Assembly: GCA_964525635.1 (NCBI GenBank)
Contig: CAZGJX010000097.1
Span: 1-15,446, forward strand
Direction: 5' to 3'
From: an uncultured archaeon
GTDB lineage: Archaea; Asgardarchaeota; Lokiarchaeia; Sigyniarchaeales; SOKP01
DNA: 15,446 nucleotides
Below are positions 3,801-9,205 of the stretch, piece after piece. The notes beneath the pieces are model-generated. The model was not told the origin of the DNA, did no database searches, and worked only from the letters and a program-made list of their open reading frames with translations. The translations under genes and the position numbers were made by a program. Each line of letters starts with the position of its first letter. Position 1 is the first letter of the stretch.

Positions 3801-3961
3801 GAATCAAAATCAAGTGTTTTAATTTTATAATTAGATATAGAAATATTTGATAGATTGATTTTGTTCAATATGAAATTAGATATATTTGGTATTAGAAAAA
3901 GTAAAATAGTAAAACCTATTAAGAAAATATTTGATTTTCTAAACTTATTATATTTATTCAT
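1..3961 (-). CDS. Secreted multidomain S8 (subtilisin-like) serine peptidase with I9-like propeptide, PPC-like, CARDB-like and jelly-roll domains and C-terminal Ig/cadherin-like repeats; 3' end lies outside the window
   Basis: Manual translation from ATG 3961-3959 gives MNKYNKFRKSNIFLIGFTILLFLIPN (signal peptide). The catalytic motifs are all in one frame: IAILDTGID (Asp codon 3325-3323), DDNGHGSHLSGIAAG (His 3202-3200), VIVSAGNSG, KPDICAPGG, QGTSMACAAVAG (Ser 2236-2234). The same frame is still coding at position 1. It is absent from the ORF track, presumably because it has no stop codon in the window. Confidence 0.95.
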   Translation of the reverse strand, partial: MNKYNKFRKSNIFLIGFTILLFLIPNISNFILNKINLSNISISNYKIKTLDFDSSDILTWKSNYLGIDQDNNGISDELEEKLNSLLNSDSTKKQNKLIFEKNNIHISKDSIPIIVKFSRGDYNNILTLFKKLGGEVKSTYTMSINGFAGNINYEGLMKFSEILYFNEIPFFIEEDGFFTANMYYASRNMNLRPYVWDILGYNGDNTSSIAILDTGIDVSHDMLDEYSDGNFNYKVVGWKDEVNDLSLPYDDNGHGSHLSGIAAGDGNPNLDYLGRTVASGGFTENQTGSSVSPEEKLIIVTRFNVTTPGTIDAVCEFKDYTPDPDDVDINAYLFYQEAMVDSFNSSSDIWSSNLSYIVPSNELGDYSIRILINFIDNNANNSVEEPCYTFRYRTHWPFDVPLYNCGGPWRGIAEETHLVGIKVLDQYGNGTQSDVIDGINWAIQNKRTYHITTMALSFNSPSIELTSIVDAVNNAVENGIVVIVSAGNSGIGEGNIGSPGNAEKAITVAATNHLDQITQYSSQGDYYYGVTKPDICAPGGSNLTLQMFSSDSNYNDIESEYSDWFSNDLIGAQGTSMACAAVAGASNILIEAMGGYNNWTYTEEEAKLVKYLLLMTATETAPLFREGTTISSQSPTLDRGWKDYHEGFGRLNLDMAIEAYTNELEAESLNSIFISSSSDNPNGKHGFACHANFLKGITYNLQLDAPDDCDFDIFIYSDNPSSISGDPYWQYRSATYGIGQDENIEFTTYKSGKYYIVVKAVRGEGLANLTLKLPEHELEVSLDGLFLPKISEASSISAIVYNRGSSNESNVNVTLYKNSIAINSTTIQTLPTGSYHTITYNWIPKKYGIYNFTAYCSPILNETNANNNLMTEMINLFQNTFYDDFENGLSKWESITGLWHLTGVDSQWPDSYHSENHSIWFGNESTGTYDIGAPVTGNITTNPFNLKDAVNASLEFYYWYEGEYYLDAPSVYITTDGIHWDYLYELYLYDNIEPWAKINIDLSSYINHSSVQIRFYIDTYDDLYNNYRGFLMDDFKIMKWVNDTDAPTWIYPPLDQYVEFGNDFFYDIDAIDQSEIAYFSLNDTINFDIDSNGLITPIGTLSVGEYWIEIRAYDPYGNFANATIKITVDDQSGPIWDQYPSDQDVEFGNDFEYDVNALDASGIESYWINDTINFNIDSDGLITNINPLDIGEYWIEIRAYDPYEQYISAMILVIVEDSTTPAWDPIPSDQIVEFGDDFEYDVEASDLSGINYYWIDDTINFNIDSNGLITPIGTLSVGEYWIEIRAYDPHGNYCTILILITVEDSTTPAWDPIPSDQIVE

Positions 3962-4074
3962 AAGATAATCGCTTTTTTAAGATTATAAGCTATTAAGAAC
4001 TCAAATTATCAGAAATATAAAAAAGGAGTTGGAATAAATGTGAAGTTTTTTTGATTAAATCCATGATAAAAATG

Positions 4075-4215
4075 GAATATCAAGAGAAAAGATTGAACTA
4101 CCATCACCTAAAGGGGTTGTATTCATAATTCATTGAAATAAGCTCAACTGATTGTTTGAGTCTTATAGTTTTACCAATCGCTTAACATTCCATAGTCCCT
4201 ACGGTAGAATGATCA
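4075..4215 (-). ncRNA. Putative TnpB omega-RNA (reRNA) scaffold plus flanking guide
   Basis: The minus strand reads TACCGTAGGGACTATGGAATGTTAAGCGATTGGTAAAACTATAAGACTCAAACAATCAGTTGAGC...TAGTTCAA, resembling the segment found between tnpB 3' ends and IS right ends. It includes a CTCAA/TTGAG stem. Boundaries are approximate and the call is by recognition only. Confidence 0.5.
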
Positions 4216-4369
4216 TAAATAATTGATTATCTTATTTATTATCATTAATTAATAAAGAGGTTTTTTCTATTTTTAAAAAAGATGTGAGAATGATTAGTAA
4301 CTTTTACATCATTTTATATGATTAACTTCATCCCATCCATAAAAGAATGGGCTTTGTTTTGTTCTTATG
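4093..4369 (-). mobile_element. Non-autonomous IS200/IS605-family element (PATE-like), IS608-type ends, no tnpA or tnpB
   Basis: Minus-strand left end: TTAC|CATAAGAACAAAAC-AAAG-CCCATTCTTTTATGGATGGG (target tetranucleotide, AAAG guide, hairpin at 4351-4332). Right end: GAAT-ACAACCCCTTTAGGTGATGGTAGT-TCAA| (4124-4093). TTAC/AAAG and GAAT/TCAA are the known IS608 cleavage/guide pairs. Confidence 0.8.
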
Positions 4370-4433
4370 GTAAAAATCAATATTATATAATACCTAAAAT
4401 TTTATATTTTGAAAAGATATAATATGATTAAGA

Positions 4434-4790
4434 ATGAGTGTAAAATTAGATATTGACTTAGTATTAAAAAGTCTTTTAGAAGAATTAGGTGAAAAAGTCT
4501 ATTTCATCATTATTTCTTCTGAAAATGGTCTAATTCTAAAATGTCATATAAATAATGAAGAGTTTGATAAATCAGCTATAAGTCTTCATATTTCACAGGT
4601 TTATGAAAGTGCTCAAGAAATAACAGATTTAATTGGAATTCATAATCCAGATTTTAATCTAATACACTCGGATAATTTTTATATACTCAGTGTAAAAATT
4701 CTGGATAAAATAGTAATGGTTTTAATAGAAGATCAAACAAATATTACAGATGTATTTCGGGTTATTAATAATTGTATTAAGGCTAATTAG
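4434..4790 (+). CDS. Roadblock/LC7 (MglB/LAMTOR-like) domain protein
   Basis: 118 aa with the Roadblock pattern: N-terminal helix (LVLKSLLEEL), beta-hairpin YFIIISSENGLIL, long helix (AISLHISQVYESAQEITDLIG), three strands and a C-terminal helix. Confidence 0.7.
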   Translation: MSVKLDIDLVLKSLLEELGEKVYFIIISSENGLILKCHINNEEFDKSAISLHISQVYESAQEITDLIGIHNPDFNLIHSDNFYILSVKILDKIVMVLIEDQTNITDVFRVINNCIKAN

Positions 4791-5593: not shown

Positions 5594-8500
5594 ATGAAAA
5601 ATTTTAGAGTTTTAAATAAAACAAAAATAAAATTGATACTAATCATTTCAATATTAATCTTCCAAGGAATATTTCTATTAATTGAATCAAAGAAATTTAT
5701 TTCTTTAACAACTATGACTGGAAGAGATCTAAACTCCCAAGCCTGGGAAGCCATCCCAATAACAGATGCAAATGGAGGTCCATTATACAATTATGCAACT
5801 ATGCTTTCAAGAACAATCATGTTTTATGATGCGAATCAATGTGGAAAGAACATAACAGGAAATAATCGTTTTAATTGGCGGGGTGACTGTCATGTTAATG
5901 ATGGAATAGAATGGACATTGAGTAATGGACAAACTATATGGATTGATGCTACAGGGGGATATCATGATGCAGGGGATCATATTAAATTTGGAATTACTAA
6001 TGCTTATGCAGCATCAACTTTAGGATGGGGTTTATATGAATTCCGTGATCAATACGAAGAAACTGGACAATTAAATAATATACTAAGAGCAATAAAATGG
6101 GCAACGGATTATTTTATTAAATGCCATCCTGAACCAAACTCATTTTTATATAGTGTTGGTTCTAGTGAGGATCATAATTTTTGGGGTCCACCTGAATTGC
6201 AATTGGATTCTAGAAGTCCTCGTGATATAGTTGTATGCACCCCCTCAAATCCCGCTTCAGATGTATGTGGATTAACTGCTGGAGCTTTAGCTTTAATGTA
6301 TATTAATTATATAGATATAGATCCTGATTATGCAAATCTATGTCTTCAACATGGAAAAGAGATATACGATTTAGGAAGAAATAATCTTGGGCTTAGTGAT
6401 GGCCTTGCTTTTTATCCCCCTAGTATATATTGGGATGATCTTGCATGGGGTTCAATATGGTTATATAAAGCTACAGGTGATGAAGCATATTATGATGATT
6501 TTAAAATTATACTTGGTCCCTCTTGTGCGGGGATAGATCATGATGATGATATTAATAATGGATTAAATTGGGAGAATACATGGACACATTGTTGGGATGC
6601 TGTTTGGGCAGGTGTTTTTGCAGCTGCTTCAGGAATAACAGGTCATGCTGCATTTATGGAACAAGTAGAAACTAATTTAGATTATTGGATGTATGATCTA
6701 GCTGAGACTCCAGCAGGATTAAAATACTTAAATGAATGGGGTGTTTTAAGATATGCAACAGCTTCTGCCTTATGTGGATTAGTTTATTATAAATATTCTG
6801 GAGAAATTATTTATCGAGATTTTGCTGCCAGCCAAATAAATTATGCTTTAGGTTCTAATCCCTTAGATCGCTGTTATATTGTAGGTTGCGGAACAAATCC
6901 ACCTCAACACCCACATCATGATGCTGCTCATGGTTCTGAAACTGGTTTTCTTGATGATCCTCCAGAACATAAACATGTACTCTATGGAGCACTTGTCGGA
7001 GGGCCTGGAATGGATGACCAACATAATGATGCTACAGATGATTATGTTCAAAATGAAGTATCCATTGATTATAATGCGGCAATGGTTGGCGCCTTAGCGG
7101 GTATGCGAGAGAATTTTGGTCCAGATCTTATTCCTGATCCTGATCCGGAGCCAGAACCGCCCATTCAAGCATATTGGGTTGAATCTAGAATTGAAAAAGA
7201 TTTAAATGAAAGATCACAACTTACCTTTTATATTCAAAATCATGCAATCCACCCACCACACTATGAATATGATCTGTTATTTAGATATTATGTAGATTTA
7301 AGTGAAGTTTTTGACCAAGGCTATGGACTAGAAAATATAAATATTGAAACGGTTGTAAATGAAAACCAAGATGCTCAAGTTGCTCAAGAATTTACACCAT
7401 GGGATGAATTAAACTATATTTATTATGTTGAAATTAGTTATCAAGGAGTAGAATTATACAATAAAAGAGAAGTTCAAATTGCATTAATATATAATACACC
7501 TAATTTTGAGGGAATATGGGATCCTACAAATGATTTTTCGCATTTACCCATGACAGAAATATTAGAGCCAAATGAAAACATCCCGCTCTATCGCGGTGGT
7601 GAGCTATTATGGGGCTCAGAACCATATAAAGATTTAATTCCCCCTGAGAAACCGACTGGGATTACTACATCAGTTAAAGGGAGTGCACAAATTGATTTAG
7701 ACTGGAATGATAATAGTGAAACAGATTTATCACACTATAACATTTATCATAGTATAAATAGTCAATTTGAAATTAATAGTGAATCATTAGCAGGAAGTTC
7801 TGGAACCAGTGATTTTTCTGATACAGAATTATTAGCTGAAACAATTTATTATTATAAAATCACTGCTGTAGATACAAATGAAAATGAAGGTTTACCTTCA
7901 GATATTGTTTCAGCAACTACTCTTACACCAGATCCATATCCCCCAGCTTCACCAACGGGTCTGACAGTTATAGATACAGGATCATCACAAATAGAACTTA
8001 ATTGGAATGATAATTCAGAAGATGATCTCTCAAAATATAAAGTATATCGAAGTACTATTTCTGGATTTACATGTGATCAGACAACCTATATTGGAGATAC
8101 AATAGTAAGTAACTATTTGGATATAGATCTTTCATCCGATACTACTTATTATTATAAAGTTATTGCCATTGATACAAGTAATAATCCTAGTGATCCTTCA
8201 GATCAAATTTCTGCTACAACTGATAAAATTATAGCACAATTAAGGGCCAAATATATATGTGGTAATCAAGATTCTACAACTTCGGAGGTTAGAGCACAAA
8301 TACAGATTCAAAATGATGGTCCTCTTGATGTTGCTTTGACTGATGTTACCGTTCGATATTGGTTTACTTCTGAACCTGCCCTAAGTGATCTTACTTACTC
8401 ATGTGATTATGCTGCTGTTGGATCCTCAGGAATAACGAGTACATTTGGAAGCACAGGAGATTCTGATTATTTAGAAATTGGATTTACTTCCTCAGCCACA

Positions 8501-9205
8501 GTTCCTACTTGGTTAGGGGGAGATGGTTCCAGTAACTCTCTTCTAATAGGGGCGAATACAGGAGATATTCAAAATAGAATTGGGAGAAATTCTAACATCA
8601 ATTTTGATCAGACTAATGACCATTCGTTTGATCCTTCTTTTAGCGCTTACTCAGATGCAAATCAAATCACAGTTTATTATCAAGGAATTTTAGTATGGGG
8701 TAAAGAACCTCCAACAGGACCTATTAGTGAGCCCCCAAGTATTAATTCTCCTGCTAATGTTAATTATCAAGAAGGAGATACAGGAAATTCAATAACATGG
8801 ACAGCTACAGATGATAATCCTACAATCTATATAGTTACTCGAGGTAATACTCAAGTAGCTTCTGGGTCATGGAGTTCTGGAAGTCCAATAACCATGATTG
8901 TTGACGGTTTATCCCTAGGAACTTATACTTATACTTGTACCGTTACAGATGGAGATGGACAGATGGATTCTGACTCTGTTACTGTAACCGTGTCTCAAAG
9001 CACAGAATTCCAGAATGGTGATGTGAACCATGATAGTAATGTTGATATTGTGGATGCCCTTATGATTGCCCAATATTATGTAGGACTTGATCCTCAGCCA
9101 TTTTATCCCGAGGAAGCAGATGTGGACAATAGTGGATCTATTGATATTGTGGATGCATTGATGGTTGCTCAAGCCTATGTAGGATTAATAGAATTACCTC
9201 CATAA
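5594..9205 (+). CDS. Secreted modular GH9 endoglucanase: signal/TM - GH9 - CBM3(c-like) - FN3 x2 - CBM3 - Ig-like - dockerin
   Basis: GH9 motifs FYDANQCG, WRGD, GGYHDAGDHIKFG, PQHPHH, LYGALVGGP, DYVQNEVSIDYNAA. Pro/acidic linker PDPDPEPEPP at about 7133-7162. Two FN3 units (PEKPTG...LDWNDNSETDLSHYNIY...YYYKITAVD). CBM3 (QIQNDG...LTDVTVRYWFT...CDYA...YLEIGF...FDQTNDHSF...LVWGKEP). Duplicated dockerin loops GDVNHDSNVDIVDALM and ADVDNSGSIDIVDALM. Confidence 0.95.
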   Translation: MKNFRVLNKTKIKLILIISILIFQGIFLLIESKKFISLTTMTGRDLNSQAWEAIPITDANGGPLYNYATMLSRTIMFYDANQCGKNITGNNRFNWRGDCHVNDGIEWTLSNGQTIWIDATGGYHDAGDHIKFGITNAYAASTLGWGLYEFRDQYEETGQLNNILRAIKWATDYFIKCHPEPNSFLYSVGSSEDHNFWGPPELQLDSRSPRDIVVCTPSNPASDVCGLTAGALALMYINYIDIDPDYANLCLQHGKEIYDLGRNNLGLSDGLAFYPPSIYWDDLAWGSIWLYKATGDEAYYDDFKIILGPSCAGIDHDDDINNGLNWENTWTHCWDAVWAGVFAAASGITGHAAFMEQVETNLDYWMYDLAETPAGLKYLNEWGVLRYATASALCGLVYYKYSGEIIYRDFAASQINYALGSNPLDRCYIVGCGTNPPQHPHHDAAHGSETGFLDDPPEHKHVLYGALVGGPGMDDQHNDATDDYVQNEVSIDYNAAMVGALAGMRENFGPDLIPDPDPEPEPPIQAYWVESRIEKDLNERSQLTFYIQNHAIHPPHYEYDLLFRYYVDLSEVFDQGYGLENINIETVVNENQDAQVAQEFTPWDELNYIYYVEISYQGVELYNKREVQIALIYNTPNFEGIWDPTNDFSHLPMTEILEPNENIPLYRGGELLWGSEPYKDLIPPEKPTGITTSVKGSAQIDLDWNDNSETDLSHYNIYHSINSQFEINSESLAGSSGTSDFSDTELLAETIYYYKITAVDTNENEGLPSDIVSATTLTPDPYPPASPTGLTVIDTGSSQIELNWNDNSEDDLSKYKVYRSTISGFTCDQTTYIGDTIVSNYLDIDLSSDTTYYYKVIAIDTSNNPSDPSDQISATTDKIIAQLRAKYICGNQDSTTSEVRAQIQIQNDGPLDVALTDVTVRYWFTSEPALSDLTYSCDYAAVGSSGITSTFGSTGDSDYLEIGFTSSATVPTWLGGDGSSNSLLIGANTGDIQNRIGRNSNINFDQTNDHSFDPSFSAYSDANQITVYYQGILVWGKEPPTGPISEPPSINSPANVNYQEGDTGNSITWTATDDNPTIYIVTRGNTQVASGSWSSGSPITMIVDGLSLGTYTYTCTVTDGDGQMDSDSVTVTVSQSTEFQNGDVNHDSNVDIVDALMIAQYYVGLDPQPFYPEEADVDNSGSIDIVDALMVAQAYVGLIELPP

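Follow-up and report, generated by a model that had tools for sequence, protein, structure and literature searches.

A partly decayed, probably idle non-autonomous IS200/IS605 element with an omega-RNA-type scaffold in a Promethearchaeota (Asgard) archaeon

The insertion sequence IS608 of Helicobacter pylori belongs to the IS200/IS605 family and is mobilized by a Y1 transposase, TnpA, in a process known as 'peel and paste'. In the IS608 mechanism, the cleavage motif is read by a tetranucleotide located 5' of a hairpin. Short elements of this kind that encode no protein (PATEs) reportedly occur in the archaeon Haloquadratum walsbyi, where they are linked to IS1341-type (tnpB-only) elements. The PATEs of Geobacillus stearothermophilus 'often encode omega-RNAs' that need TnpB in trans (Meers et al. 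2023, preprint, PMC10055086).

The stretch of DNA analysed here, called the window, comprised 15,446 nucleotides and was contig C97 of a 4.45-Mb, 245-contig genome assembly (G000). The three TBP genes in the assembly identified the host as an archaeon, and its relatives are named Promethearchaeota. An earlier note had proposed that a protein-less, IS608-like mini-element lies between two divergent genes of the window, and this reading was supported by the ends of the element, by its copies and by the existence of parent-type elements. We put the probability at roughly 85% that positions 4093-4369 of the minus strand are an old, partly decayed non-autonomous IS200/IS605 element (PATE or MITE) of a Promethearchaeota (Asgard) archaeon that, in this genome, most likely neither moves nor works as a guide. 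The proposed 277-bp segment with both hairpin ends and the four IS608-type tetranucleotides was confirmed by direct read-out of the sequence and by the multi-copy alignment, and an ORF scan found no open reading frame longer than 34 aa overlapping 4093-4369, in line with the note, which had seen no ORF there. The features, all on the minus strand and given from the left end of the element to the right, were as follows.

4370-4373, minus strand: TTAC, the target or cleavage motif 5' of the left end, in the flanking DNA outside the element; it would also be the TAM for TnpB.
4093-4369, minus strand: the mini-element, 277 bp, gene-less and non-autonomous, IS200/IS605 type (PATE/MITE), with limits taken from a 25-copy alignment.
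4352-4355, minus strand: AAAG, which abuts the left hairpin on its 5' side as the left guide tetranucleotide (G_L), read from the sequence.
4332-4351, minus strand: the left-end subterminal hairpin, CCCATTC / TTTTAT / GGATGGG, followed by ATGAAG, read from the sequence.
4267-4280, minus strand: a TATA-box-like run, TTTTTTAAAAATAG (family consensus TTTTTAAATAG), present in all copies.
4093-4214, minus strand: the omega-RNA-type scaffold module with four helices, matched by covariance model R1 at 117 bits (E 6e-23), with 28 of 33 pairs kept.
4121-4124, minus strand: GAAT, which abuts the right hairpin on its 5' side as the right guide tetranucleotide (G_R) and varies little or not at all among 24 sequences.
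4101-4120, minus strand: the right-end subterminal hairpin (helix 4), weakened in the window copy by two mismatches; the stems are compensatory between lineages.
4093-4096, minus strand: TCAA, the right-end cleavage motif and last bases of the element, where the similarity between copies halts sharply and beyond which all 3' flanks differ.
4073-4092, minus strand: the would-be guide, TCTTTTCTCTTGATATTCCA, in the flanking DNA 3' of the right end, assigned by position only.

TTAC, AAAG, GAAT and TCAA occupied the same places as in IS608, the nearest described system in the chemistry of its ends. Other features held in common with IS608 were the imperfect subterminal hairpins at both ends, kept across the copies with compensatory changes, the absence of terminal inverted repeats and of a target duplication, and the covariation of the fourth bases of the target and the left guide. 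Unlike IS608, the mini-element had no tnpA or tnpB of its own, its sequence similarity to IS608 was limited to the motifs, and one subfamily used TTAT with AAAA or AATA. The PATEs of Haloquadratum walsbyi are likewise short archaeal elements without a protein gene, and their ends recur in tnpB-only IS200/IS605 elements, but the present family belongs to another phylum and is unrelated in sequence, and its retained RNA scaffold was documented by covariation. As in the omega-RNA (reRNA) of the ISDra2-type TnpB, the multi-helix scaffold ended at the right end with the flanking DNA in the place of the guide, and in the full-length relatives of the mini-element it overlapped or abutted the 3' end of tnpB. 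In contrast to the ISDra2-type omega-RNA, there was no match at the level of sequence or of Rfam, only about 115 nt were demonstrably parental and the TnpB partner is hypothetical.

The closest likeness in kind was to the PATE-like elements of G. stearothermophilus (PMC10055086), which are also minimal, non-autonomous elements with both ends and no protein gene. There too, the ends resemble those of tnpB- or tnpA-bearing elements of the same or a related genome, the omega-RNA is one for TnpB in trans and the target motif equals the TAM. The differences were that the host is an Asgard archaeon and not a Firmicute, that the place of the promoter is taken by an archaeal-type TATA-like box and that the family resides in a genome without tnpA or an intact cognate tnpB; moreover, it is known here from sequence alone.

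The right end of the window element consisted of GAAT, the hairpin and then TAGTTCAA, ending at 4093. In the alignment, the place of the left-flank TTAC was taken by TTAC or TTAT in the other copies and in the full-length elements. The G+C content of the element region was 20-26% versus 26.8% for the genome. The TATA-like run may serve as an internal archaeal promoter directed at the right end, and a similar box, roughly as far from the left end, was found before tnpB on contig C93. Oligo-T can terminate transcription in archaea. A run of five T residues was seen at window 4068-4072 (minus strand), 21-25 nt past the right end; termination there may yield a guide of about 20-25 nt, while a chance origin of the run is quite likely at 27% G+C.

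A BLAST search of the genome with 4093-4369 and an nhmmer family profile, to which the window element scored 264 bits, found five full copies in G000 (C97, C78, C65, C9 and C4) and two partial ones, a right-end part on C244 and a left-end part on C169, all with different flanks. Weaker relatives were present on C42, C170 and C121. The copies in G000 were 75-89% identical to one another, with the window copy as the outlier (75-78% identity to its sister copies) and the most diverged of the family in this genome. The congener G002 contained at least 38 full copies by BLAST, about 88% identical among themselves, and 54 covariance-model matches to the scaffold module. When the copies were aligned with their flanks, the similarity began and ended exactly at window 4369 and 4093 and the flanks differed at every copy; the bounds of the element are therefore not a chance reading. 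No target-site duplication was seen, TTAC or TTAT stood before the left end in most copies and TCAA closed nearly all of them.

The weak or partial relatives of the mini-element or of its ends in G000, those on C42 and C170 among them, were located at C42:11194-11488 (minus strand), C170:5322-5429, C131:8228-8277, C245:55-108 and C124:168-225, and comprised one distant full-length copy, one left-end half and solo right ends.

The tetranucleotides of the family varied as the IS608 rule predicts. Among the copies flanked by TTA, all four scored TTAC copies carried AAAG, and 12 of the 13 TTAT copies carried AAAA or AATA (4/0 versus 1/12; Fisher p = 0.002, a value that overstates the significance since the copies are kin). 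One copy, L080, with TTAC and AAAC, was not scorable and lay outside the count. By inspection, the rule was also obeyed by the tnpB element on C93 and the tnpA element of G002 (both TTAC/AAAG) and by a fragment on C56 (TTAT/AAAA). The pairing of GAAT with TCAA was nearly invariant across the family. The covariation of TTAC with AAAG and of TTAT with AAAA is what the IS608 mechanism predicts, and the TTAT subfamily of G002 appears from its motifs to have been retargeted by one base. The copies of G002 designated L074-L091 were mostly inserted at TTAT with AAAA before the left hairpin; a minority, together with the tnpA-bearing element, had TTAC and AAAG.

Elements that share their ends with the mini-element were found both in the host, where they bear tnpB, and in a congener, where one bears tnpA. 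The last ~45 nt (GAAT, hairpin, TAGTTCAA) recurred immediately behind the stop codon of three tnpB genes of G000, on C93, C9 and C23. The C93 gene was intact, with 416 aa, and the C9 and C23 genes were broken. The stems of the right-end hairpins of these three elements differed in a compensatory way. A second group of tnpB genes in G000 (C50, C1 and C19) ended in a hairpin plus GTAGTTCA. At the left end, the same build was common to the mini-element, the C93 tnpB element and the C56 fragment, namely a T-run, TTAC or TTAT, CATA..., the guide tetranucleotide, a hairpin and ATGAAT. The only Y1 tnpA element of G002 (L065, which comprises tnpA and the start of tnpB and is then cut off by the end of the contig) had this build as well (TTAC / AAAG / hairpin / ATGAAT). 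Moreover, its left-end hairpin sequence was the same as that of the right-end hairpin following the tnpB fragments with which the G002 contigs C193 and C10 begin, which suggests that an autonomous parent type with both tnpA and tnpB exists in the genus, apparently split across contigs in the assembly.

The earlier note had suggested that the element could be moved by TnpA in trans and could supply a guide to a TnpB encoded elsewhere. Neither suggestion held for G000 as assembled. The Y1 transposase domain (PF01797), present in 11 of 41 relatives, had no match in the assembly, so that no enzyme to move the element was found. A tblastn search with the TnpB fragment of G001:C71 detected only a fossil of the cognate tnpB, on C121, and the scaffold of the C93 tnpB element was clearly different and shorter (47 bits against 117-138 bits). 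Repeats are often left unassembled in an assembly of 245 contigs, and tnpA or the cognate tnpB may exist in the unassembled part. The fossil itself (C121:7624-7865, minus strand), left by an element of the parental type, combined a remnant of a TnpB C-terminus (45% identity to the G001:C71 TnpB in a 40-aa stretch) with the scaffold module and right end downstream of it, and it abutted an unrelated P-loop gene. G000 also contained two very large TnpB-like ORFs with a TNB zinc-ribbon domain, at C51:16234-18636 (minus strand, 798 aa) and C22:18110-20341 (minus strand, 733 aa).

The right-hand 115 nt of the element were homologous to the stretch that comes right after tnpB in the full-length elements of the relatives. 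This module followed the tnpB stop codon directly in G001:C71 and G017:C197 and overlapped the end of the ORF in G002:C193/C10. Its layout was ACCGTAGGGACTACGGG ... GCGTTTGGAG ... TGTAAGAC, hairpin, GATGAATTACGAAT, right-end hairpin, GGTAGTTCAA. An alignment of 24 sequences (A3), in which the mini-elements came from four genomes and the tnpB-linked modules from three, with three further copies added, was predicted to fold into four helices with 33 pairs. On this structure, 91.9% of the cells were standard pairs, a value somewhat favoured by the fact that the structure had been predicted from the same alignment; column shuffles gave 81% and none of 500 reached it, and slid partners gave 24-42%. 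Both sides had changed in 18 of the 33 pairs. To our knowledge, TnpA does not need helices 1-3, which lie outside the subterminal hairpin. That these helices have been maintained nevertheless argues for constraint at the level of the RNA, and by position and structure the module is best read as a putative omega-RNA scaffold. The window copy kept 28 of the 33 pairs; two of the five broken ones were in the right hairpin.

A covariance model of the module, R1, was built from the family's own sequences. In G000, it matched six mini copies at 112-138 bits and the C121 fossil at 82 bits. The 3' ends of the C93, C9 and C23 tnpB genes scored 39-47 bits, and there the 39-nt central part with helices 2b and 3 was replaced by 19 nt. 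Of 41 related genomes, G000 among them, 15 contained the module according to the model (E <= 1e-6), with 1 to 54 matches per genome. In Rfam 15, no relevant match to the element was obtained at the gathering score nor at E <= 10, perhaps because no curated model covers the clade. The omega-RNA-like stretch that the earlier note had placed next to the right end was thus upheld by its homology to tnpB 3' segments and by covariation; a match to an Rfam covariance model was absent, and the model matched was R1.

Parental homology was demonstrable only for the last ~115-120 nt of the mini-element. The ~65 nt that separate the TATA-like box from the module had no significant similarity to the 3' coding region of tnpB (a score of 23 versus 20.3 +/- 3.9 for shuffled sequences). 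This limit suggests that the RNA of the mini-element may be a truncated scaffold or one with another 5' part. A long-range helix of GGGACTAC with GTAGTTC, proposed by RNAalifold from closely related copies, was rejected because the change from CCGTAG/CTACGG to CCGCGG/CCGCGG in the tnpB-linked modules of G002 keeps the local hairpin and breaks the long-range pairing. Short BLAST matches to the interior of the element in relatives (G001:C146, G003:C232 and others) lay away from tnpB and were dropped as uninformative.

These observations suggest how the family may have arisen. An IS605-type parent with tnpA and tnpB would have lost its coding region and so given rise to a gene-less family that retained the left end (the TTAC or TTAT target, the guide tetranucleotide and the hairpin), the TATA-like box and the last ~115 nt. 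The latter, which close with GAAT-hairpin-TAGTTCAA, would correspond to the 3' portion of the scaffold in the TnpB omega-RNA. A Y1 TnpA acting in trans would move the elements as single strands and insert them 3' of TTAC or TTAT. Transcription, if there is any, would cross the right end into the flank and yield a scaffold-plus-guide RNA, with which a matching TnpB could re-cut the emptied site. Transcription of the element, use of its RNA and its present state are what we infer from the sequence features, and the window copy is taken to be immobile and idle as a guide because G000 has no tnpA in its assembly and no intact cognate tnpB, and because both the scaffold and the right hairpin are damaged. 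It is most likely a stranded, slowly decaying relic in this genome.

The alternative that has survived best is that the window copy is a working, stand-alone guide cassette, whose RNA, made from the internal promoter, would be loaded on a TnpB encoded elsewhere, for example the 416-aa protein of C93, and would guard the insertion or target TTAC plus the flank. The structural constraint on the scaffold across the family, the conserved TATA-like box and the intact tnpB genes in G000 fit this proposal, and the use of PATE omega-RNAs in trans is accepted in the literature (PMC10055086). R1 also matched the 3' ends of the C93-type tnpB genes, which points to related scaffolds, but at only 39-47 bits and without the 39-nt central part that holds helices 2b and 3, and the tnpB lineage that is cognate to the module is a fossil in G000. 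The window copy, with five broken pairs, is the most diverged, and in the absence of tnpA there would be no excision to guard against. Neither did the guide lead to a second target: the 16-nt would-be guide had no second exact match in the genome, and none of the one-mismatch matches listed had a TTAC or TTAT motif. A working cassette is thus unlikely.

A broader proposal, which we regard as improbable, is that selection on the RNA fold has preserved gene-less Asgard elements as stand-alone omega-RNA genes, and that a change from AAAG to AAAA retargeted a subfamily from TTAC to TTAT. If this were true, the insertion site of TnpA would be uncoupled from the TAM read by the parental TnpB, and the TTAT subfamily would either use a TnpB with a changed TAM preference or have a role other than homing. 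A weaker form concerns the window copy, from whose internal promoter transcription could now run on into the S8 protease gene.

The element lies in the same orientation as the gene of a 1320-aa S8/CARDB protease, with its ATG at 3961 (minus strand), and is 131 nt upstream of it. On the other side, 64 nt away, is the ATG of a divergent 118-aa ORF at 4434 (plus strand). Both distances were given correctly in the earlier note. The 'Roadblock' label that it had attached to the 118-aa ORF had no support from Pfam, where no match was found even at E <= 1; a protein atlas gave a score of 0.98 to a 'Roadblock/LAMTOR2' cluster, which is a lead only.

This position raises the possibility, which we consider very unlikely, that the element has been exapted as regulatory DNA, either because its internal promoter reads towards the S8 gene or because it alters the control of the divergent Roadblock-like gene. 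The short distances, the shared orientation with the S8 gene and the TATA-like box pointing to it are as such a role would have them. However, the conserved core promoter block of the 118-aa gene (~4394 to 4434) lies outside the element and is common to congeners that have no element, and the region upstream of the S8 gene has TATA-like runs of its own. Moreover, the copy is decaying at neutral-looking sites, structural pairs included, and no other copy has a comparable gene context.

A full module scoring 118 bits was observed in another Promethearchaeota MAG, L170:1854-1973 (minus strand; JAUWRB010000132.1), directly downstream of the orthologous Roadblock-like gene, and appears to represent an independent insertion next to the same gene. 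Elsewhere in the window, positions 5594-9205 (plus strand) encoded a 1203-aa protein with GH9 cellulase, CBM3, fn3, PKD-like and type I dockerin domains. Dockerin-bearing cellulases are typical of bacterial cellulosomes.

The earlier note had predicted an empty site in which TTAC is followed directly by TCTTTTCTC, but no base-exact empty allele of the window copy was found in the congeners G001, G002 and G003. The three congeners matched the window only from about 4381 rightwards. There, the left neighbour of the Roadblock-like gene is a divergent 180-aa gene, and the 131-nt intergenic region between the two contains no element. In G000, the C-terminal 42 aa of the 180-aa gene were found at the very start of contig C93 (C93:2-127), and its place next to the Roadblock-like gene is taken by the S8 protease gene. 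Synteny is therefore broken on the left side of the window copy and the intergenic DNA has diverged, which accounts for the lack of a base-exact empty site. The location of the 180-aa gene fragment at the start of C93, with the S8 gene beside the element, suggests that the mini-element is at or near a rearrangement or assembly breakpoint. Among other Promethearchaeota, the 1.5 kb upstream of the 118-aa gene contained the module at none of 43 orthologous loci. For the sister copy on C78, the orthologous intergenic site in G001, G002 and G003 lacked the element, in diverged DNA in which the junction was not base-exact.

The remaining alternative, that the block is no transposon remnant but a multi-copy structured non-coding RNA gene or another repeat with a chance likeness to the ends of IS608, is extremely improbable, for although short A/T-rich motifs are frequent in a genome of 27% G+C and Rfam is silent, 1) both ends are common to tnpB- and tnpA-bearing elements, 2) the module is located at the 3' end of tnpB in relatives, 3) the target and guide tetranucleotides covary and 4) no two copies share their flanks and congeners lack one of the copies.

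An omega-RNA-bearing PATE has already been described as a kind (Meers et al. 2023), and the decayed element of the window reveals no new mechanism; the covariation of the tetranucleotides and the covariance seen throughout the family are tidy and not surprising. The window copy is probably a relic. For annotation, the element accounts for 277 bp of non-coding DNA in a region of divergent promoters and flags seven related loci in G000. For the IS200/IS605 family, the copies are a natural demonstration in Promethearchaeota of the IS608 target/guide tetranucleotide rule, and they add a well-delimited Asgard-archaeal omega-RNA-bearing PATE with a family structure that extends across 15 of 41 related genomes.
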